Shown here one piece after another: positions 2,332-23,563 of a stretch of DNA of 50,247 nucleotides. The notes beneath the pieces were generated by a model. It saw only the letters and a program-made list of their open reading frames with translations, was not told the origin of the DNA and did not search any database. The position numbers and the translations under genes are program-made. Position 1 is the first letter of the stretch. Every line of letters starts with the position of its first letter. The DNA comes from an uncultured Porphyromonadaceae bacterium (lineage in GTDB: Bacteria; Bacteroidota; Bacteroidia; Bacteroidales; UBA12481). The DNA lies in assembly GCA_964416825.1 (NCBI GenBank), contig CAYQFT010000004.1, positions 1 through 50,247 of the forward strand. The letters run 5' to 3'.

Positions 2332-3345
2332 TCAATGCCACCCGGTATCGATGGTCCCGTTCTTAATCCCGGCTTCAATCTGGGATAGCGCCGTCCGGAT
2401 GCTGTCGGGGATCACTGCCTCAAAATCATGGAAAGGCGCCAGGCCTACCCCTCCGTTCAGGAGATTTCCCTTCACCGCGGTACTCCCTTGCCAGCTCCCG
2501 GCATGATAGGTTTCCAGCACATCAAACAATATCTGTCCGAGGTTCTTCATGCACGAGGTTAGCAGCACAGAGCCCACCTGGGGGATCGAGATATATTGGT
2601 CGACATCCACGCCGATGGCCCATTTTCCGGCCGCTTTAGCCTGATATAACGCCCCGTTGCCCGTTTGTCCGGCAAAGGCGAAGATCACCGATGCCCCCTG
2701 CCGGATGGCGCTGTCGGCCAGCTGGGCACCCATCAGGGTATCGATAAAACTGCTGGCAAAGAATCCCGACACCTCAACACTCCTGCTATATTTTGAATTA
2801 AAATATTCCACTCCTTTCACATAACTCTGTGAAAACTGCAGAATTTCCGAAATAGCCGGCCCTCCTACGAACCCTGTGCGCGGGGCACCCGGATTCTCCT
2901 TATTGGCCCACCAGGCAGCCAGGAATCCGCAGGGAAAAGAGCTCTGGTCCACCTCAAAAGTTACGCACTGTATGTTCGCCACCGGTTCTTCATACACATA
3001 ATCGAGAATCACAAAATCGATATCCGGGTTGGCTTCCGCGGCGTGCAGAGTAGGAACGGCCGCATGGAAGCCGCAGGTGATGATCAGGTCGTACCCGTAA
3101 GCGACCAATACCCCGATGTTGGTGGCAATGTCGCCTTCCAGGTCGCAGGCCAGGGCATCGCCTTCGAATCCGAATTCCTCCTTGGCTTCCATAAATCCGG
3201 CAAGGATATCCTGGTTAAAACCCCGGTCATCGAACCCGCCCAGGCCGCTGACGAGGCCGATTTTTGGGGCCGGCGGATCAGGGTGGCAGGAGGAAAGAAG
3301 AAAGAGAAAAGAAGAAAGAAGAAAGAGGGAAGAGGAGCGTTTCAT
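2332..3345 (-). CDS. BMP (PnrA/TmpC-like) family substrate-binding lipoprotein
   Basis: Lipobox LSSC; GGFDDRGFNQ, AGQTGNG, WAIGVDVDQ and LTSCMK motifs typical of the BMP family. Confidence 0.9.
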   Translation of the reverse strand: MKRSSSLFLLSSFLFLLSSCHPDPPAPKIGLVSGLGGFDDRGFNQDILAGFMEAKEEFGFEGDALACDLEGDIATNIGVLVAYGYDLIITCGFHAAVPTLHAAEANPDIDFVILDYVYEEPVANIQCVTFEVDQSSFPCGFLAAWWANKENPGAPRTGFVGGPAISEILQFSQSYVKGVEYFNSKYSRSVEVSGFFASSFIDTLMGAQLADSAIRQGASVIFAFAGQTGNGALYQAKAAGKWAIGVDVDQYISIPQVGSVLLTSCMKNLGQILFDVLETYHAGSWQGSTAVKGNLLNGGVGLAPFHDFEAVIPDSIRTALSQIEAGIKNGTIDTGWH

Positions 3346-7813: not shown

Positions 7814-7837
7814 GGTCCCCGCGTTCGCGAGTATGAC
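7814..7837 (-). repeat. Degenerate GTCAT..-type palindromic repeat
   Basis: ggtccccgcgttcgcgagtatgac is similar to the reverse complement of gtcatccccgcgaaagcggggaccc at 22084-22108. Confidence 0.65.
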
Positions 7838-7839
7838 AA

Positions 7840-7865
7840 GTAGAGACGCATATATGCGTCTCTAC
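7840..7865. repeat. 26-bp perfect REP palindrome GTAGAGACGCATATATGCGTCTCTAC
   Basis: Identical copy at 14639-14664; one-mismatch copy at 20848-20873. Confidence 0.92.
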
Positions 7866-7866
7866 A

Positions 7867-7901
7867 AACCGGTAACCGGTAACTGGCAACCGGCAACTAC
7901 T
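7867..7901. repeat. AACCGGY heptamer array
   Basis: aaccggt aaccggt aactggc aaccggc aactact; same family at 13456-13497, 13532-13559 and 14735-14769. Confidence 0.85.
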
Positions 7902-13315: not shown

Positions 13316-13455
13316 GATACAATTTTAGGTGATTTAATTTTCATTTTTGGGCACGAGGGGGGAGCGACAAAAAAGGCGAAAGAAAAAAGGCGAAAGGCGA
13401 AAGAAAGAATTAAGATGGTAAGATTTTAAGATAAGGTATGTCTAATGTACCCTTA

Positions 13456-13497
13456 CCAGCAACCAGTAACCAGCAACCAGCAACCAGCAACTGGCTA
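13456..13497. repeat. CCAGCAA heptamer array overlapping the dehydrogenase stop codon
   Basis: ccagcaa ccagtaa ccagcaa ccagcaa ccagcaa ctggcta. Confidence 0.85.
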
Positions 13498-14550
13498 CAT
13501 CTCGATCATCGCCTTCATCACCGTGCCCCCTCCGGCAACCGGTAACCGGCAACCGGCAACCTTCTCAAACGCCTCCTGCGTTTGGCTGAAGGGGAACCGG
13601 TGGGTAGGCATGCGGCTTACATCAACCTTTGATTCCTGAAGCAGCTCCAGTGTCTCCTCAAGCGAATGGTTCTGCCGCCTGACGTTCTGAATGCTGATCT
13701 CCTTGTGGCGGAGCTTGTCCACGGGAAAGGACCAGCGGTCGAATTCGGGAATTCCGATAATCATCAGCTTACCGCCCGGCTTAAGCATGTCAATAGCCTG
13801 ATCTGTTGCATCTTGCTGGCCGCAGCATTCGAATACCAGATCGAGCAGCGCCTCCTCCCGCTCCTTCACGGCAGCCACCACATCCTCTTTCAGGGGGTTG
13901 CCGGTCCAGGCTGCGCCGCATGCCTCAGCGATCGCCAGCCGCCCGTCAATCTTGTCGGTGACGTAGATCTTTCCGGCACCTTTTTGCAGGGCAGGCAGCA
14001 AAACGCTCATTCCGATGGGGCCAAAGCCCAGTATTCCGATCTTTTTTCCGGCCAGATCCATCTGTGCCAACCGGGTTGCATATACTCCGATGGCGAGCGG
14101 CTCCGAGATCGCGGCTTCGTCATAGCTCATCGAATCGGGGATCTGAAAACAGCTGGTTTCGGGCATCACAATGTATTCCGATAAACACCCCTCTGCCTGA
14201 CCGGGAGTTCCGAGAAATTTCAGCTTTCGGCAGGTATGCGGCCTTCCGGCCAGGCACTGGTCGCAGGCAAGGCAGGGCATCGCCGGATCGATGGCAATGC
14301 GATCGCCCGGCTTCACGCGGGTGACACTTCCGCCCACTGCAACAACCTCTCCCGCCCCCTCATGCCCGACTGCAAAAGGATAGCTCACCACCTGGCTGCC
14401 GATCCTGCCGGTTGTGTAGTAGTGGATATCACTGCCGCAAACACCCACCACCTTCATCCGGATCAGAACATCGGTATCCTTTGTGATCGCCGGCACCGGC
14501 CGTTCAACCAACTCCATCCGGCGGATGCCGGTAAGTACTGCTGTTTTCAT
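13495..14550 (-). CDS. Zn-dependent medium-chain alcohol dehydrogenase (sorbitol/L-iditol dehydrogenase-like)
   Basis: GVCGSD, GHEGAG, CLACDQC..C structural Zn site, GFGPIG. Start reassigned to ATG 14550 (MKTAVL) because the longer ORF simply reads through repeats. Confidence 0.9.
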   Translation of the reverse strand: MKTAVLTGIRRMELVERPVPAITKDTDVLIRMKVVGVCGSDIHYYTTGRIGSQVVSYPFAVGHEGAGEVVAVGGSVTRVKPGDRIAIDPAMPCLACDQCLAGRPHTCRKLKFLGTPGQAEGCLSEYIVMPETSCFQIPDSMSYDEAAISEPLAIGVYATRLAQMDLAGKKIGILGFGPIGMSVLLPALQKGAGKIYVTDKIDGRLAIAEACGAAWTGNPLKEDVVAAVKEREEALLDLVFECCGQQDATDQAIDMLKPGGKLMIIGIPEFDRWSFPVDKLRHKEISIQNVRRQNHSLEETLELLQESKVDVSRMPTHRFPFSQTQEAFEKVAGCRLPVAGGGTVMKAMIEM

Positions 14551-14623: not shown

Positions 14624-14769
14624 GTCATGTTCGGGAAAGTAGAGACGCATATATGCGTCTCTACAATCGCGGGAATGACAATGCTCCGAGGCAGGGGATC
14701 CTGACTTTCGTCAGGATGACAGTTCTGGCGAAATAACTGGCAACCGGTAACCGGTAACCGGCAACCATC
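14624..14769. repeat. Composite repeat cluster (GTAG-REP, GGATCCTGAC-TTTC-GTCAGGATGAC palindrome, heptamers)
   Basis: REP 14639-14664; atcctgactttcgtcaggatgac 14698-14720; aactggc aaccggt aaccggt aaccggc aaccatc 14735-14769. Confidence 0.85.
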
Positions 14770-17328: not shown

Positions 17329-20300
17329 TTAGGGAGCACCATGAGTGCGGAGCAGTTTCCTTTTGGAACCTGCTAGCCACCTGGTGGTGTAATCTGGGCC
17401 GCTGACTGCCACCCGTCCCCCATCCTTTCCGCCCCCCGGCCCCAGCTCAATAACCCTGCCAGCCCACTCCATCAATAGTGCCTCATGGGTTACACAAACG
17501 ATCGTATTCCCGGCATCGGTAAGCTCACGGAAAAGGACCAGTAAGCGCGCGATATCCGTGGAGTGCAGTCCGCCCGTGGGCTCATCGAGCAGAAAAAGGG
17601 TGTTGTTGCCATGCAAAGCGGAGAGACCGGATACGAGCTTAAGCCGCTGCAGCTCGCCGGCCGATAGGGTTTTCAGTGACCGGCCGCATGCCAGATGGCC
17701 CAGACCGGTTTTTTGAACCAGGCTCAAAATTTTCTCCGCCTGGCTTTTCGTCTTACCGTGAATATGGCCCTCAAATACCCGGGATAGCTCACTGAACGGC
17801 ACCCCCAACACCTCACTAATCCCCCTATCACCTATACCTCTATCACATTTCACTTTTCCACATTCCACTCTTTCAAGGTCGCCTCTATCACTAATCCTCA
17901 CCTCCATCACCTCCTCCCGGAACCCGGCGCCTCCGCATCGTTCGCACGGCGAAACCGCGTCGGCAAAGAAATCCATGCTCACGCTGTTGATCCCGCTACC
18001 CTCGCAGGCCGGGCAGCGGCCTTCCCTGGACCCGGGGGTAAAATGGGCAGCCTTAAAGCCCAGGGCCTTACTTGCCGGCAGTGCCGCAAATATCGTGGCA
18101 ATCAATCCCGATAATCCAAGCATGGAGCCCGCCGTTGCCGTGTACCCCTTGCCGGGCAAGGGCTGCTCAATATATATGAGATCACTGAAATGCTCAAATC
18201 CCGATATCGATTCACACCCAACTGCCCGTCGCGCCATATAGCTCGGATAGATCACCCTATCCAGCAAGCTCGTCTTCCCGCTCCCGCTTACCCCGGTAAC
18301 GACGGTTAGCGTTCCCGTGTTTATTTCGAGGTCTATGTTGCGGAGGTTGTTCGCGTGAGCTCCGAGAATAGACAGATGACCGATGACGGACGACGGATGA
18401 TGACGGATGACCGATGACCGACGACCGATGGAAGATGACGGACGACCGAGGACGGACGACGGATGATGACGGATGACCGATGACCGACGACCGATGGAAG
18501 AGGACGGACGACCGAGGACAGACGACGGATGAATCGCATCCCCCATCGTTGGTCGTCCGTCATCCGTCATTCGGCGTCTGTCCTCGTCCGTCATCGGTCG
18601 TCGGTCGTCGGTCTGCGGTCCCTGAAAGATGATCCTTCCTCCCACCGCCCCCGCACCCGGCCCGAGCTCAACCCGGTAATCTGCGATCTCCAGCAGCTGC
18701 GGGGAATGGTCCACCAGGATCACGGTGTTTCCGTGACGGTTCAGGTCGAGGATCAGGTCGCTGATCCTGCTGATATCTTTCGGATGGAGACCGAACGACG
18801 GCTCATCGAGAATATAGGCCACGCCGGTGAGCGGCGCACGCACGAGACCAGCCAGCTGCAGCCGCTGGAACTCGCCGCCCGAGAGGGTTCCCACGATCCG
18901 GTCGGTGGAGATGTAGCCCAGACCTGCTTTTTGAAGGGCTTCGAGCCTGCCGGCAACATCATCCGTGAAGGCCGCAGCAATCTTCTGTTCCAATACGTTA
19001 CTGCGGGATGCGCTGAAAAATTCACCGAACCAAACGGCTGCCTCATCGGCCGACAAAGCGGTTACCTGACCGATATGCAGACCTCCTACCCTATATTCCA
19101 GCATCCCGGGCTTGAGCCGGTAACCCCTGCAATCGCTGCACACTTCGCTTTTCATCAGGTCGAGCATGGCCTCGCCCCGGGCATCCGCATGCTTCCGGAT
19201 GTATTCCGTTTCAACCAGGCTGAGGAACCCTGGCCAGGTGGTTTTCAACCGGTGAACCCCCTTAACGTTGCCTCGCTTATAGCTCCAGTCAACTGTAAAT
19301 ACCTCATCCCCGCAGCCCCTCAATGCAATCCGTATAGCCCTGTCATCCAGTTCTTTACAAGGGACCGAAAAATCAATCCCCTTCTGTTGACCCACGGTCA
19401 GCAGCGCTGCCACATACTGGCCATACGGATCGCCATAAAAACGTCCGGTCTTGCTGCCGTCGAGGGCTCCCGCAATGAGCGCCTTTGAGGGGTCCGTGAC
19501 CAGCCGGTCAGGGTCACAAACCGTCAGGGTTCCGAGCCCCTTACACAACGGACAGGCACCCTCCTCGCTGTTGAAGGAAAAGGCGTTTGAATAGGGCCGG
19601 TGCAGCCCTTCTGCGTGTTCAGCCATCCGGCTGAAAACCAGCCGGTATAAGTCGTACAGCCCCGTATAGGTGGCAATCGTCGACCGCGGATTCCGCACAG
19701 GGGTTTTTTTCTGCAAGGCAACCGATGGAACCAGGCCGCGGCCTTCGCGCAGCACCGGAACACCCGCTTTCACCGAATGCTGCCGGCTGTAGGAAGAAGT
19801 CCCCTCCATAAACCTCCGCTGGCTTTCGGCATACAGCGTTCCATACACCAGCGAACTCTTGCCGCTCCCCGAAACCCCCGTCACCAGCGTAATCCCATCC
19901 ACCGGAAAAGAAACATCAATGTTTTTCAGGTTATTCGTCTCCACCCCCAACAACCGAATCGCCCCACTCCCCACCTCCTCAACTCCCTTAACTCCCTTAA
20001 CTCCCTTAACTCCCTTAACTTCCTCAACTCTCCCAACCTCCACCACCCTCTCCGCCTCCCCAACAAACTGCTCATCATTCTCCACACAAATCAGCGTATG
20101 CCCCCTGGCGGTCAACTTCTTCAAAGCCTTCACCAGAATCTCCACATCGGCCATGTGCAGCCCGGTGGTGGGCTCATGGAGGATATACAGGGTGTTGCCG
20201 GTGGCCGGGCGCGAAAGTTCGGAGGCCAATTTTACGCGCTGGGCCTCGCCTCCCGACAGGGTCGTTGAGGGCTGGCCGAGCCGCAGGTACCCAAGTCCGA

Positions 20301-22296
20301 GTTCCGACAGGATCCCCGTGATGGCGGTAATCTTTTTCTCTCCCTCAAAAAACCGGTGCGCCTCATCCACCGTAAGTTCCAGAATATCATGAATATTCAG
20401 GCCCCGATAGCGTATTTCAAGCGTTTCATCCGTAAACCGTTTCCCCTCACACACCTCACAAATCACATCCACATTTCCGAGAAAATGCATCCCGATTTGC
20501 TGCACCCCGGCGCCACCGCAGCTTTCACAGCGGCCGCCCTTCACCACAAAGGAAAACTGACCCTTTTTATACCCACGCCTGTGCGATTCGGGCTGGGCTG
20601 CCAGCAGGTCGCGTACGTAATCCGACAATCCTGTGTAGGTGGCCGGGTTGCTCTTTGGGGTCCGCCCGATCGGGGATGAATCCACGGCAATCACCTTCCC
20701 CGGCCATAATTTATTGGCTATTATGTTGTTAACCAGGCTGGTCTTCCCGGATCCCGAAACCCCGGTAATCACATTCAGGCCGCCAATCAAAAATCGGGAT
20801 AAACTATTTTCAGACTCTCTCCCGTTTCCTGGTCTTACCGTCTTAGGGCAGAGACGCATATATGCGTCTCTACGGAGGTACGTCCAGGTCAGATTATCGG
20901 GGTGGTCTTCGCCAAAAAAGGCGGCGGCCGGTCCGTTGAACAATACCCGTCCGCCGGCTGCTCCGGCGCCCGGACCGATGTCAATAATCCAGTCGGCCTC
21001 CCGTATAGTTTGCTCATCATGGTCGACGACTATCACGGTGTTCCCGCCCGTTACCAGCGACCGCATGACATCGAGCAGGTCGCGCTGTTCAGAAGGATGA
21101 AGCCCGACACTGGGTTCATCGAGAATATACAGCACATTCCGGAGTCCGCCCATGGCCTGGTTGGCCAGTTTGATCCGCTGGGATTCGCCGATACCGAGCG
21201 ACGGAGATCCGCAGTCGAGGGATAGGTGTCCCGCACCCAGCTTTATCAGGAGATTTGTGCGCCTCAGGATCACCTCACGAACCGGATTCACAACGTAAGC
21301 CTCTGCATCAGAAGGAGTAAGCCCGATAAAAAAAGTGTGCAACTGCCGGATACTCATTGCAGCAAATTCAGAGATATCCTTGCCCCAGAGCTTTACCGAC
21401 ACAGCCTGATCGTTCAGCCGCCGGCCCCCGCAACCCTCACAGGTTTGCGACCGGGCAAACCGCATGATATTCGGGTTCCGGTCGCGTTTGAGGATATCCT
21501 CCATCACCGGCAGGATACCCTTGTAATAATCCTCATCGCGGGGCTTGGCCGTTATCCCGGTCCATTTCAATCTTGATTCCAGCGGATGCTTGCCGAATAA
21601 TACCTTGATTTTTGCGGAGCCATTCAGCACCACATCTTTTTGTTTATCAGTCAGTTCATTCCAGGGTATATCGACGGTGAATCCCTCGGCCCGGCACACC
21701 TGATCCAGCACGGCCATGGTCACCTGCGAATAGATGATATAATTGTTGGGGGTAGTCAGAACAAAGGCGCCCTCCCGGATGGTTTTGGCCGGATCCCCGA
21801 TCAGGAGTGACGGATCGATATGGTCCTGCACACCCAGTCCTTTGCAAACGGGACAGTACCCATCGGGATGATTAAAGGAAAACAGGCTGCGATGCAGGTT
21901 TAGTCTGGAAATTTCAGATTTGCCCAACCGGGCAAACAACAGCCTCAGCAAATCGTACAGTTCGGTGAGAGTCCCCACCGTCGACCGCGGACTGCGTACC
22001 ACACTGCTCTGTCCGATCACCATCACGGGAAACAACCCCTCGATCCGGTCGGCTTTCGGCCTGCTAAGTAGGCCCGGTGCGTTGTCATCCCCGCGAAAGC
22101 GGGGACCCCCACCCGTAAAGCACTGCGCCATCAACCTCCTCCCCTCAGCCGCCAGCACATCATAAACCAGGCTGGTCTTTCCGCTTCCCGACACGCCGGT
22201 AACCACAATCAGCTTATAATGAGGGATCCGCAGGGAAACTTCCTGGAGGTTGTTTTCCCGGGCGTTTTCTATGATGATCTCTCGTACTGGGTTCAT
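17329..22296 (-). CDS. uvrA: Double-length (tandem-fused) UvrA-like ABC ATPase apparently lacking UvrB-binding domains, with in-frame repeat inserts
   Basis: Four GVSGSGK Walker A motifs, FSFN..CxxC zinc fingers, four signature/Walker B sets. Start reassigned to ATG 22296 (MNPVREIIIENARENNL), 1 bp after the MFS stop. Confidence 0.88.
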   Translation of the reverse strand: MNPVREIIIENARENNLQEVSLRIPHYKLIVVTGVSGSGKTSLVYDVLAAEGRRLMAQCFTGGGPRFRGDDNAPGLLSRPKADRIEGLFPVMVIGQSSVVRSPRSTVGTLTELYDLLRLLFARLGKSEISRLNLHRSLFSFNHPDGYCPVCKGLGVQDHIDPSLLIGDPAKTIREGAFVLTTPNNYIIYSQVTMAVLDQVCRAEGFTVDIPWNELTDKQKDVVLNGSAKIKVLFGKHPLESRLKWTGITAKPRDEDYYKGILPVMEDILKRDRNPNIMRFARSQTCEGCGGRRLNDQAVSVKLWGKDISEFAAMSIRQLHTFFIGLTPSDAEAYVVNPVREVILRRTNLLIKLGAGHLSLDCGSPSLGIGESQRIKLANQAMGGLRNVLYILDEPSVGLHPSEQRDLLDVMRSLVTGGNTVIVVDHDEQTIREADWIIDIGPGAGAAGGRVLFNGPAAAFFGEDHPDNLTWTYLRRDAYMRLCPKTVRPGNGRESENSLSRFLIGGLNVITGVSGSGKTSLVNNIIANKLWPGKVIAVDSSPIGRTPKSNPATYTGLSDYVRDLLAAQPESHRRGYKKGQFSFVVKGGRCESCGGAGVQQIGMHFLGNVDVICEVCEGKRFTDETLEIRYRGLNIHDILELTVDEAHRFFEGEKKITAITGILSELGLGYLRLGQPSTTLSGGEAQRVKLASELSRPATGNTLYILHEPTTGLHMADVEILVKALKKLTARGHTLICVENDEQFVGEAERVVEVGRVEEVKGVKGVKGVKGVEEVGSGAIRLLGVETNNLKNIDVSFPVDGITLVTGVSGSGKSSLVYGTLYAESQRRFMEGTSSYSRQHSVKAGVPVLREGRGLVPSVALQKKTPVRNPRSTIATYTGLYDLYRLVFSRMAEHAEGLHRPYSNAFSFNSEEGACPLCKGLGTLTVCDPDRLVTDPSKALIAGALDGSKTGRFYGDPYGQYVAALLTVGQQKGIDFSVPCKELDDRAIRIALRGCGDEVFTVDWSYKRGNVKGVHRLKTTWPGFLSLVETEYIRKHADARGEAMLDLMKSEVCSDCRGYRLKPGMLEYRVGGLHIGQVTALSADEAAVWFGEFFSASRSNVLEQKIAAAFTDDVAGRLEALQKAGLGYISTDRIVGTLSGGEFQRLQLAGLVRAPLTGVAYILDEPSFGLHPKDISRISDLILDLNRHGNTVILVDHSPQLLEIADYRVELGPGAGAVGGRIIFQGPQTDDRRPMTDEDRRRMTDDGRPTMGDAIHPSSVLGRPSSSIGRRSSVIRHHPSSVLGRPSSSIGRRSSVIRHHPSSVIGHLSILGAHANNLRNIDLEINTGTLTVVTGVSGSGKTSLLDRVIYPSYMARRAVGCESISGFEHFSDLIYIEQPLPGKGYTATAGSMLGLSGLIATIFAALPASKALGFKAAHFTPGSREGRCPACEGSGINSVSMDFFADAVSPCERCGGAGFREEVMEVRISDRGDLERVECGKVKCDRGIGDRGISEVLGVPFSELSRVFEGHIHGKTKSQAEKILSLVQKTGLGHLACGRSLKTLSAGELQRLKLVSGLSALHGNNTLFLLDEPTGGLHSTDIARLLVLFRELTDAGNTIVCVTHEALLMEWAGRVIELGPGGGKDGGRVAVSGPDYTTRWLAGSKRKLLRTHGAP
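17821..17895. repeat. Degenerate short-period repeat insert within uvrA
   Basis: cctatca cctatac..tcacatt tcacttt tccacat tccactc; cctctatcac occurs twice. Encodes ISDRGDLERVECGKVKCDRGIGDRG. Confidence 0.55.
18375..18620. repeat. Two inverted GAYGACS heptamer arrays, in-frame in uvrA
   Basis: Left arm 18375-18531 (gatgacc/gacgacg..., with a 66-bp higher-order duplication); right arm 18544-18620 (ggtcgtc/cgtcatc...), the reverse-complement unit. Confidence 0.92.
19973..20044. repeat. 9-bp tandem array (ACTCCCTTA x4 plus degenerate flanks), in-frame in uvrA
   Basis: Encodes VEVGRVEEVKGVKGVKGVKGVEEV at the junction of the two UvrA units. Confidence 0.9.
20848..20873. repeat. GTAG-REP copy in-frame in uvrA
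   Basis: gcagagacgcatatatgcgtctctac; encodes RRDAYMRLC. Confidence 0.9.
22084..22108 (+). repeat. GTCATCCCCGCGAAAGCGGGGACCC palindromic repeat in-frame in uvrA
   Basis: Hairpin tccccgc-gaaa-gcgggga preceded by GTCA; encodes GPRFRGDD; related copy at 7814-7837. Confidence 0.8.
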
Positions 22297-22297
22297 T

Positions 22298-23563
22298 TCA
22301 ATTTTCTGGTATGCCGGGTAAAATTCCCTTGGTGATATAGATTGGGTGAATCTGTTTCCTGAGCGCACCCAGGTTAAGGAAAAACCAAATCCCTGCAATC
22401 AGGGTAACGATCCCGCAGATCAAAAGGGTATGCGGAATACCGATTCCGCTGGCCAGCGATCCGGTCAGCAGGTTACCGATCGGGGTGGTCCCCATCACAG
22501 CCATCGCATAAAAGCTCATCACCCGGCCCCTTTTATCCTCATCGGTGAGGGTCTGGAGAAGTGTATTAATGGCGGAAAGCAAAAGAATCATCGATAACCC
22601 GCCAAAAAAGCAGGCAACATAGCTCAATGCCCGGCTGTGGGAGAAGGATGCCAGCACGATGGCCATACCGAGAATTCCGATGCTGCCGGAGATAATTTTT
22701 CCAAGACCTACCACGGTTTTGCGCGAGGCCATATAGAGTGCAGACAGTAAAGCTCCCGCCCCCAGGGACGACATCAGGTAGCCCAGCGTATCAGACCCGC
22801 CCTGTAAAATCTCCTTAGCATAGGCGGGAAGCAGTACGATGAACGGCAGTCCGGCCAAACTCAGGACGGCCAGCAGCAGGATCAGGGTGCGGATCGGCAT
22901 CGACTGAAAAGTATATTGAAATCCTTCCCGGAAACTCTTTTGGAAGTCCTGATTTGCGGTCCTGACAGGCCTTGGCGGAATCCGGATCTGCAGGAGGGCC
23001 CCGATAACCGCCAAAAAACTCAGGCTGTTAAGCAGAAAACAGACGCCCTCACCCAGGGCTGCGATTGCAATACCGGCGATGGCAGGCCCAACCAGCCGGG
23101 CACCGTTGAAAATGGCTGAATTCAGGGCAATCGCGTTGCCCAGATCATCGGGGTTATCAATCAGATCGATCACCAGCGACTGCCTTGCAGGTGCATCAAA
23201 AGCCGTGACAATTCCATTAAAAACACTCAGGACCACAATGTGCCACACCTCAATCTGGTTCATCAGCACGAGAATCGTCATCGCCACAGCCTGCATCATA
23301 TAGCAAACCTGGGTCAGCGTCATGATCCGGAGCCGGTTAAACCGATCGGTCAGGACTCCGGTGAAAGGTGCCAGAATAAAGGTCGGTATCTGGCTCAGAA
23401 ACCCAACCAGCCCAAGCAGGAACACCGATCCGGTGAGCCGGTAAACCAGCCAGCTCAGCGCAATGTTCTGCATCCAGGAACCGATCAGGGAAATCCCCTG
23501 CCCGATAAAATAGAGCCTGTAGTTCCGTGAATGGAGCGATGAGAAAATCTGTGTTATCATCAT
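22298..23563 (-). CDS. MFS transporter (MFS_3 / EntS-like exporter)
   Basis: RNYRLYFIGQGISLIGSWMQ, GVLTDRFNR (motif A), AIALNS..ARLVGP, RGRVMS; about 12 TM helices. Confidence 0.92.
   Translation of the reverse strand: MMITQIFSSLHSRNYRLYFIGQGISLIGSWMQNIALSWLVYRLTGSVFLLGLVGFLSQIPTFILAPFTGVLTDRFNRLRIMTLTQVCYMMQAVAMTILVLMNQIEVWHIVVLSVFNGIVTAFDAPARQSLVIDLIDNPDDLGNAIALNSAIFNGARLVGPAIAGIAIAALGEGVCFLLNSLSFLAVIGALLQIRIPPRPVRTANQDFQKSFREGFQYTFQSMPIRTLILLLAVLSLAGLPFIVLLPAYAKEILQGGSDTLGYLMSSLGAGALLSALYMASRKTVVGLGKIISGSIGILGMAIVLASFSHSRALSYVACFFGGLSMILLLSAINTLLQTLTDEDKRGRVMSFYAMAVMGTTPIGNLLTGSLASGIGIPHTLLICGIVTLIAGIWFFLNLGALRKQIHPIYITKGILPGIPEN

Follow-up and report, generated by a model that had tools for sequence, protein, structure and literature searches.

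Repeat-derived in-frame inserts in the loops and linkers of a tandem-duplicated UvrA-like ATPase gene from an uncultured Porphyromonadaceae bacterium

The stretch of DNA analyzed here (hereafter the window) comprises 50,247 nucleotides of contig CAYQFT010000004.1 from the assembly GCA_964416825.1 of an uncultured Porphyromonadaceae bacterium, and it contains on its minus strand a gene whose product is a UvrA-like ABC ATPase in tandem-duplicated form and whose reading frame has accommodated five distinct repeat-derived inserts. Two of these contain short palindromes belonging to families dispersed through the genome, which we call p1 and p2, and short-period tandem repeats account for or accompany the others. 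The gene and its inserts are arranged as follows:

17329..22296, minus strand: coding sequence of the tandem-duplicated UvrA-like ABC ATPase, 1655 amino acids (aa), with four nucleotide-binding domains (NBDs) and no UvrB-binding domain
22084..22107, minus strand: insert 1, the NTS/SRM-type hairpin p1, in frame as GPRFRGDD (aa 98-105), in the loop following the Walker A helix of NBD-I
20794..20886, minus strand: insert 2, the palindrome p2 with a decayed array of units resembling the palindrome arms, in the linker from NBD-I to NBD-II
19963..20043, minus strand: insert 3, a 9-nt array of GGAGTTAAG units, encoding VKGVKG..., at the junction of UvrA units 1 and 2
18370..18620, minus strand: insert 4, a pair of heptamer arrays in inverted orientation (GACGACC / GATGACG type and its complement), in the linker from NBD-III to NBD-IV
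17833..17892, minus strand: insert 5, an apparent local short-period duplication of 20 aa (aa 1503-1522), in a turn of NBD-IV

The open reading frame (ORF) extends without interruption from stop to stop over 17329..22398 on the minus strand (1689 aa), and its probable start is the ATG at 22296, with which the starts of the orthologs align, leaving 1655 codons. Searches against Pfam and NCBIfam support the UvrA identity and recover the UvrA_DNA-bind domain: TIGR00630 (UvrA) reaches 1264.9 bits where 729.8 is the cut-off, a score summed over the two tandem units, and PRK00349 (UvrA) scores 1259.6 against 1147. The model PRK00635, for an 1809-aa excinuclease ABC subunit A, yields 754 bits and thus falls below its cut-off of 3054. 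The presence of four Walker A motifs in a single ORF (at aa 66, 544, 839 and 1367) marks the protein as a tandem two-unit form. The top match in the PDB is the Bacillus UvrA (PDB: 2r6f, E = 8.7e-169), whose residues 137-280, constituting the UvrB-binding domain, are without counterpart, residue 126 of the query joining 134 directly, and a second structure (PDB: 2vf7) aligns to residues 9-530 as a single stretch. Judged by this alignment, the protein is not a canonical (class I) UvrA, in which the UvrB-binding domain is situated between the two halves of NBD-I. Each of its halves is comparable to the class II UvrA paralogs, namely Deinococcus UvrA2, DrrC and Ecm16, which combine the UvrA DNA-binding domain with two ABC NBDs and their zinc modules and have no UvrB-binding domain, as set out in PMC9328131.

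Orthologs from the same genus are 1581-1653 aa long, and at greater distance tandem relatives of 1.6-2 thousand aa were found in Geothrix, Fibrobacteres, Planctomycetota and one Prolixibacteraceae metagenome-assembled genome (51%, the nearest named relative); these distant relatives were recovered by an alignment-based contig scan, and a single-protein scan confirmed none of them. We know of no tandem-form UvrA with a tested function; this form is also called "class III". By homology the product is a DNA-binding ABC ATPase, probably accessory to repair or to the tolerance of DNA-binding compounds. The copy in the window differs from the class II and tandem versions of UvrA in its five repeat-derived inserts and its one degenerate ATP site. 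A T9SS sorting domain elsewhere in the data points to Bacteroidota as the source phylum.

The same assembly contains a second, partial tandem-UvrA copy (contig C325:302-1684), which is 67% identical to the gene in the window and has a linker devoid of arrays. A tree of NBD-III renders the genus as a polytomy, on which this second copy may represent either a paralog or contamination of the assembly, and on which the strand losses seen in two further members of the genus, G001 and G014 (see below), may or may not have been independent.

To delimit the inserts we used a protein alignment of 14 sequences, drawn from 13 related genomes and the second contig of this same assembly (G000); the closest relative, G017, was assembled independently, is 85% identical, and has a contig that stops before insert 5. 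A first-pass annotation of the window, made from its letters alone, had described a uvrA-like gene with an intact frame that had absorbed five inserts in loops and linkers, several of them in place of the native linker, and this description stands in all its parts, the stated positions of the inserts included: the model scores and the uninterrupted 1655 codons bear out the gene, and in the alignment each of the five appears as an insertion or a replacement, with three of them replacing native sequence. Insert 1 is an exact insertion of 24 nt that is missing in 11 of the 12 orthologs covering the site and is present in G017 only; it contains the 23-nt hairpin GTCATCCCCGCGAAAGCGGGGAC (22084-22106; DNA fold of -8.8 kcal/mol). 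The palindrome of insert 2 spans 26 nt (20848-20873), encodes RRDAYMRLC, and has a DNA fold of -9.8 kcal/mol (z -5.75); NBD-II has lost its conserved first β-strand (GAxxNNLxxIS) at this position in both this genome and G017, the palindrome and the arm-like units having taken its place. Insert 3, in which Tandem Repeats Finder (TRF) delineates six copies of period 9 at 91% matches (19977-20030), takes the place of about 50 aa, encompassing the C-terminus of NBD-II and the inter-unit linker, a replacement that G017 shares with this genome and that no other aligned sequence shows. The two arrays of insert 4 (18371-18532 and 18544-18620) include inverted arms of 70 nt with 76% complementarity (18423-18492 and 18551-18620), and a 66-nt higher-order unit is reiterated 2.5 times according to TRF; this 66-nt duplication is confined to this genome, the G017 version being shorter. 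Insert 5 contains two copies of period 15 (TRF, 17844-17874), is missing in all 11 orthologs covering the site, and has no second copy in the genome, a BLAST search having returned itself alone; it looks like a local duplication. Inserts 1-4 are all present in G017 in diverged form and are hence older than the split between the two genomes, at a dS of about 0.65.

AlphaFold2 models of each unit, computed from a 12-sequence alignment (mean predicted local distance difference test, pLDDT, of 69.7 and 75.6), place all five inserts in segments with pLDDT <50, in keeping with their predicted location in loops and linkers. In the model of unit 1 these are residues 62-77 (insert 1), 476-500 (insert 2) and 755-781 (insert 3), and in that of unit 2 residues 452-526 (insert 4) and 694-710 (insert 5); the domain elements flanking them are confidently predicted. 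Some segments with pLDDT <50 are not repeat-derived, which suggests that predicted disorder is necessary here without being specific to the repeats.

The gene is under purifying selection. Measured against G017 over each of NBD-I to NBD-III and the N-terminal part of NBD-IV, the ratio of nonsynonymous to synonymous divergence (dN/dS, Nei-Gojobori) is 0.12 throughout, at dS values between 0.63 and 1.04; the remaining pairs are saturated (dS >1.3) and were not used. This value, far from the ratio near 1 that the first-pass annotation had named among the outcomes that would refute it, indicates that the gene is not a pseudogene. Three of its ATP sites retain every motif intact, and the remaining one has accumulated the following substitutions:

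21163..21201, minus strand: signature motif of NBD-I, LSGGE to LGIGE, in this genome and G017 only
20155..20193, minus strand: Walker B aspartate of NBD-II to histidine (LYILHEP), in this genome and G017 only
20068..20097, minus strand: H-loop histidine of NBD-II to asparagine (CVENDE), also in G017, G024 and G001

The Q-loop glutamine of NBD-II is additionally replaced by serine throughout the genus, a change not seen in the outgroups. In UvrA the elements concerned form one composite site, the proximal and distal naming of such sites being that used in PMC6486640. Inserts 2 and 3, both of which remove native structure, bracket NBD-II, the domain of the decaying site. This coincidence of the replacements with the decay of one ATP site implies that relaxed constraint is enough to explain them, and we infer that the end strands of NBD-II are dispensable.

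The p1 family to which insert 1 belongs is represented by 29 loci in the genome at ≤3 mismatches, 14 of them exact. With ≤2 mismatches allowed, 16 of the 18 further genomes of the genus contain it, in as many as about 157 copies, as do three of six genomes from other genera of the family and none of 16 genomes from the other families of the order; reading p1 and p2 backwards as a control gave 0 hits in each of 41 genomes. The in-gene copy agrees with the Neisseria NTS consensus CGTCATTCCCGCGMAVGCGGGAATCYRG at 22 of 28 positions, one of the changes being a compensatory stem pair, and displays an oriented GTCAT flank. Of 301 genomes from across the phylum, 48 contain a degenerate pattern for the shared p1/NTS core, against 0 hits for the reversed control. 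According to PMC11893778, the NTS is the target of the GIY-YIG single-strand nuclease Ssn and usually flanks the ssn gene, and in Neisseria Ssn cleaves single-stranded DNA beside this motif and reduces transformation with DNA that bears it.

A comparable arrangement was recovered in the genus, as anticipated in the first-pass annotation for the GTCAT palindrome: five of the seven small single-domain GIY-YIG genes in G000, G018, G006 and G017 have p1 or close variants on both sides, the flanks in G000 being a 4-mismatch variant and not p1 proper. The encoded proteins, of 94-97 aa, match PF01541 at about 60 bits and gave a weak match to group I intron endonucleases in NCBIfam; a PDB sequence search with one of them returned no solved relative. 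At C161:5092-5313 of G000, for instance, a 97-aa GIY-YIG gene bears on each side two copies of the p1 variant GTCATCCCGGCGAATGCCGGGAT in an NTS-ssn-NTS layout, and a second hairpin family, of the GTCATCCTGACGAAAGTCAGGATCC type, is interleaved with the copies. By its resemblance to the consensus and its association with such genes, p1 is classified here as an NTS/SRM-type hairpin of an Ssn system, with cleavage by the local enzyme remaining putative. It departs from the NTS as described in lying in frame within a protein-coding gene. Copies also sit within at least three further proteins of this genome (a PdxB-like dehydrogenase, a protein with a MiaB-like radical SAM domain, and a glycosidase in a linker), where they are read in differing frames. 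The words "intragenic", "intergenic" and "in-frame" are absent from the main text of PMC11893778, whose supplements may list such genomes.

The second palindrome, p2 (26 nt, GTAG...CTAC), is a perfect palindrome with a GTAG start that is dispersed and mostly extragenic: at ≤4 mismatches it occupies 35 loci in the genome, sometimes as intergenic doublets, and only four of these fall within ORFs of ≥200 aa, among which the copy in the uvrA-like gene alone is clearly internal. Of the 18 further genomes of the genus, 12 contain it, and it belongs, as do the 7- and 9-nt arrays, to the dispersed families restricted to this genus. The in-gene copy ends in ...CTGC in place of the consensus ...CTAC, and the corresponding copy in G017 has decayed. 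That both palindrome families also occur between genes of the window, as had been claimed, is evident from two sites:

14639..14664, strand not assigned: exact consensus-form copy of p2, upstream of an alcohol-dehydrogenase-like gene
7815..7897, strand not assigned: intergenic repeat island, with a p1-like hairpin (7815-7837), p2 (7840-7865) and an AACCGGC heptamer array side by side

The dispersal of p2 as a GTAG palindrome is reminiscent of the REP (repetitive extragenic palindromic) and REPIN elements known to be associated with RAYT (REP-associated tyrosine transposase) proteins (PMC3116915), and the first-pass annotation had raised the prospect of a RAYT gene flanked by the same repeats. 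This was not realized: none of the RAYT-like matches examined in eight genomes of the genus (4, 5, 1, 1, 7, 1, 1 and 1 in G000, which is 89% complete, G018, G006, G017, G011, G010, G005 and G007, respectively) is flanked by p1 or p2, and a RAYT as the mobilizer of either was accordingly rejected for these genomes. The p2 element thus differs from REP/RAYT systems in being without a RAYT partner in the genomes examined. A literature search with the exact p2 string did not find it, the only match being an unrelated IRF4 preprint. The four RAYT-like (Y1 transposase) genes of G000 are located at C38:6088-6429, C177:6507-6677, C147:5072-5242 and C335:9-284, and three of them are flanked by REP families of their own (CCCCCGAATTTATTCGGGGG; GGGCGGACCnnnGGTCCGCCC; GGGCGCCCACCGGGCGCCC).

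Tandem arrays are a pervasive feature of this genome, in which we counted 1345 tandem-repeat clusters, 659 of them of period 7; the period-7 arrays (n=662) resolve into 77 unit families. The units of insert 4 are found at 15-28 loci each, and the family of the insert 3 unit, AACTCCCTT, at 15 loci. Heptamer-type arrays are depleted from ORFs, which harbor 177 of 772 such arrays as against 77% of random positions. The commonest family, AACCGGC, is plentiful in three genomes (G000, G017 and G011) and scarce or undetected in the remaining genomes of the genus that were searched, and this difference in the dominant family between species suggests that families burst in single lineages. Within the window, further heptamer arrays with different units are seen at 13369-13561 (several in a row), 1882-1934, 3290-3336, 7867-7897 and 14734-14766.

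Heptanucleotide simple-sequence repeats, with the cyanobacterial STRR and the TAACTGA types (discussed in PMC4679880, which cites Mrazek 2007), offer a close parallel, sharing many arrays with few unit families per genome, a mostly intergenic location and a patchy phylogenetic spread. Unlike these, the arrays described here have other units, a dominant family that varies within one genus, a tie to palindromes, and about a quarter of their number inside ORFs. Beyond that paper we found none on heptamer repeats in this bacterial group.

The arrays and the palindromes are also physically coupled: an array lies within 30 nt of 12 of the 29 p1 loci and 12 of the 35 p2 loci, compared with 4% of random positions, and arrays beside p2 are often built of copies of the palindrome arms, as is seen at insert 2 and more clearly in its G017 counterpart. 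The claim of the first-pass annotation that the inserts stem from unrelated processes therefore had to be given up. Among the orthologs, the intra-unit linker A carries arrays in G006, G018, G015, G017, G001 and G014, and the intra-unit linker C in G006, G009, G007, G015, G017, G001, G004 and this genome, with units that differ between species. Linker C is non-repetitive in G018, G024 and the second G000 copy, and the three family-level outgroups have no arrays in these linkers save one weak 14-nt repeat.

The concentration of repeats in the gene can be gauged in two ways. With six repeat features (arrays, p1 and p2) against 0.56 expected (Poisson P = 2.6e-5), the ORF is second among 3104 ORFs of ≥200 aa by count and first among those with confirmed Pfam domains; its density is 1.18 features per kb, and several shorter ORFs attain 2.1-2.8. 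The earlier description of the gene as a hotspot hence holds by count and fails by density. Other repeat-laden ORFs are genuine multi-domain proteins. The sole ORF with a higher count is an 842-aa open frame at C96:4499-7024 of G000, with seven repeat features and no Pfam domain, which is probably a repeat island open by chance. At C110:8788-10533 of the same genome, NuoC-like and NuoD-like domains share one open frame with four tandem-repeat clusters inside, representing either a repeat-filled fusion or a spacer staying open by chance.

The stretch recurs in metagenomes of lakes and other fresh waters that stem from several studies. The Logan contigs of four runs cover most bins of it but are short, have 2-7x depth and break at the arrays; inserts 1 and 2 are covered by contigs from X1 and X3, and as none spans insert 3 or 4, the array copy numbers are those of the assembly. 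Joints that appear to skip 18428-18587 have sides of only 22-26 nt and are uninformative. Contigs of X3, a close strain from another lake metagenome, contain an additional 24 nt and 15 nt at 20829 and 20852 in insert 2, and a net gain of 24 nt over 21661-22400, a region spanning insert 1, at a position that was not located; all these differences are multiples of three, each being observed in one contig at about 5-7x.

Taken together, we consider it fairly likely that the repeat load of the gene is explained by tolerance coupled with selection for the reading frame, and not by templated patching. On this explanation the dispersed repeats of the genus (p1, p2 and arrays of 7-9 nt) would land across the whole genome, and of the copies within genes only those that leave the frame unbroken and lie in disordered loops or linkers would survive. 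The gene would offer three long inter-domain linkers as tolerant places, and the lack of the Walker B aspartate, the partner signature and the H-loop histidine in one ATP site would make the end strands of NBD-II dispensable. Once present, arrays would expand, contract and turn over through slippage in whole-codon steps, and adjacent dispensable coding sequence would be lost by deletion, giving the appearance of replacement. Slippage and deletion are accordingly proposed as the mechanism, with tolerance as the cause of the hotspot.

Several observations weigh against this explanation. The dN/dS of NBD-II is no higher than that of the other domains, so that the domain is still constrained. The GAxxNNLxxIS strand has also been lost in G001 and G014, where a different array is found, which implies either two separate events or a genus tree that is not resolved. 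The excess in count goes beyond what uniform landing provides, and the gene may be targeted by the repeats. The hairpin of insert 1 differs from that of G017 at one of 24 nt and at none of eight third codon positions in the face of a dS of 0.63, which, on this small sample, hints at conservation or homogenization at the DNA level. Finally, the physical coupling of palindromes and arrays is a point that tolerance does not fully cover.

The first-pass annotation had raised the idea of a repair-like or templated patching mechanism. A dedicated process of this kind, writing repeats over damaged or deleted stretches of the gene, would agree with the three inserts that replace native sequence, with the presence of six repeat features where 0.56 are expected, and with the p2-side arrays, since copies of palindrome arms are expected of template switching at a hairpin. 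The idea is not borne out by the non-repeat flank of insert 2 or by the whole of insert 5, which are without a second copy in the genome and hence without a donor; moreover, the deletion boundaries differ among this genome, G017, G001 and G014, as fits independent deletions, other multi-domain proteins carry an equal load per kb, and neither the arrays nor p2 could be tied to a candidate enzyme, a RAYT beside p2 being missing from the eight genomes mentioned above. We therefore regard patching as quite improbable. The repeats could instead be functional additions, serving as marks for Ssn cleavage that limit replacement of the gene by transformation, or as selected flexible linkers or interaction sites. 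The near-identity of the p1 hairpin across a dS of about 0.63, the activity of Ssn on NTS-bearing DNA in Neisseria (PMC11893778) and the recurrence of arrays in the same linkers of most orthologs in the genus would all be in line with such roles. Their likelihood is nevertheless low, though not negligible, given that array units and peptides vary by species, that G018, G024 and the second G000 copy manage with a non-repetitive linker C, that the p2 copy of G017 has decayed and that the inserts are predicted to be disordered.

Alternatively, the inserts could mark lost constraint in a pseudogene-in-waiting that is redundant with a repeat-free second copy. The degenerate ATP site, the lost end strands of NBD-II and the partial array-free copy on C325 are compatible with this notion, which is nonetheless improbable: the frame is intact over all 1655 codons with the same low dN/dS in each domain measured, three ATP sites have all their motifs, G017 possesses this type of copy alone, and C325 may itself be contamination in an assembly estimated to be 4.3% contaminated. 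An assembly artefact, with repeats mis-joined or mis-counted in a metagenome-assembled genome, has in its favor the 353 contigs of the assembly and the breaking of short-read contigs from all four runs at arrays, with none bridging insert 3 or 4. It is very improbable in light of inserts 1-4 occurring at the same places in the independent assembly of a different species, G017, of the X1 and X3 contigs covering inserts 1 and 2, and of a reading frame preserved throughout. A more speculative proposal, and one we think unlikely to hold, is that the Ssn-associated hairpins, the GTAG palindrome and the palindrome-seeded arrays constitute one active single-strand-based system that remodels linkers in frame and overwrites dispensable strands, with the in-gene hairpins held at the DNA level by nuclease recognition; if it were true, Ssn/NTS systems would be writers of protein-coding diversity, beyond their part in regulating transformation.

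A further precedent is that of the palindromic elements of Rickettsia, which are inserted in frame in proteins and are about 100-150 bp long. As in that case, dispersed palindromes persist within genes as extra surface-loop peptides and the host protein is kept; unlike them, the palindromes here are of 24-26 nt, belong to another lineage, and occur as several families together with tandem arrays in one gene. In-frame palindromic inserts, REP/REPIN elements, heptamer families and the Ssn/NTS pair are already known, and no new mechanism is revealed by our analysis. New are the host lineage, the occurrence of an NTS-type hairpin in coding sequence, the meeting of several repeat families in a single gene and the overlap with a decaying ATP site. 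The gene thereby provides a natural example of dispersed repeats entering proteins in which the ages of the inserts, their boundaries, their structural positions and the selection regime can be followed across a genus. Its in-gene palindrome is tied to the Ssn/NTS system, reported in 2025, in a phylum outside those of the main text of PMC11893778, and could be used to study whether Ssn systems propagate the motifs that belong to them. The decay of a composite ATP site and the overwriting by repeats of the end strands of the same domain would represent relaxed constraint that has been filled by repeats.

Two minor features lie at the ends of the gene. At its 3' end, a C-terminal tail of about 24 residues (17332-17403; aa 1666-1689 of the stop-to-stop frame) is missing in the orthologs of the genus and is non-repetitive and predicted to be disordered. 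At its 5' end, an MFS_3 transporter gene on the minus strand (22298-23563) ends 1 nt ahead of the uvrA-like start codon. We considered this transporter as a drug-resistance operon partner and dropped the idea, as no homolog is found upstream of any ortholog locus examined, including that of G017; this phyletic pattern suggests that the pairing of the two genes is recent.

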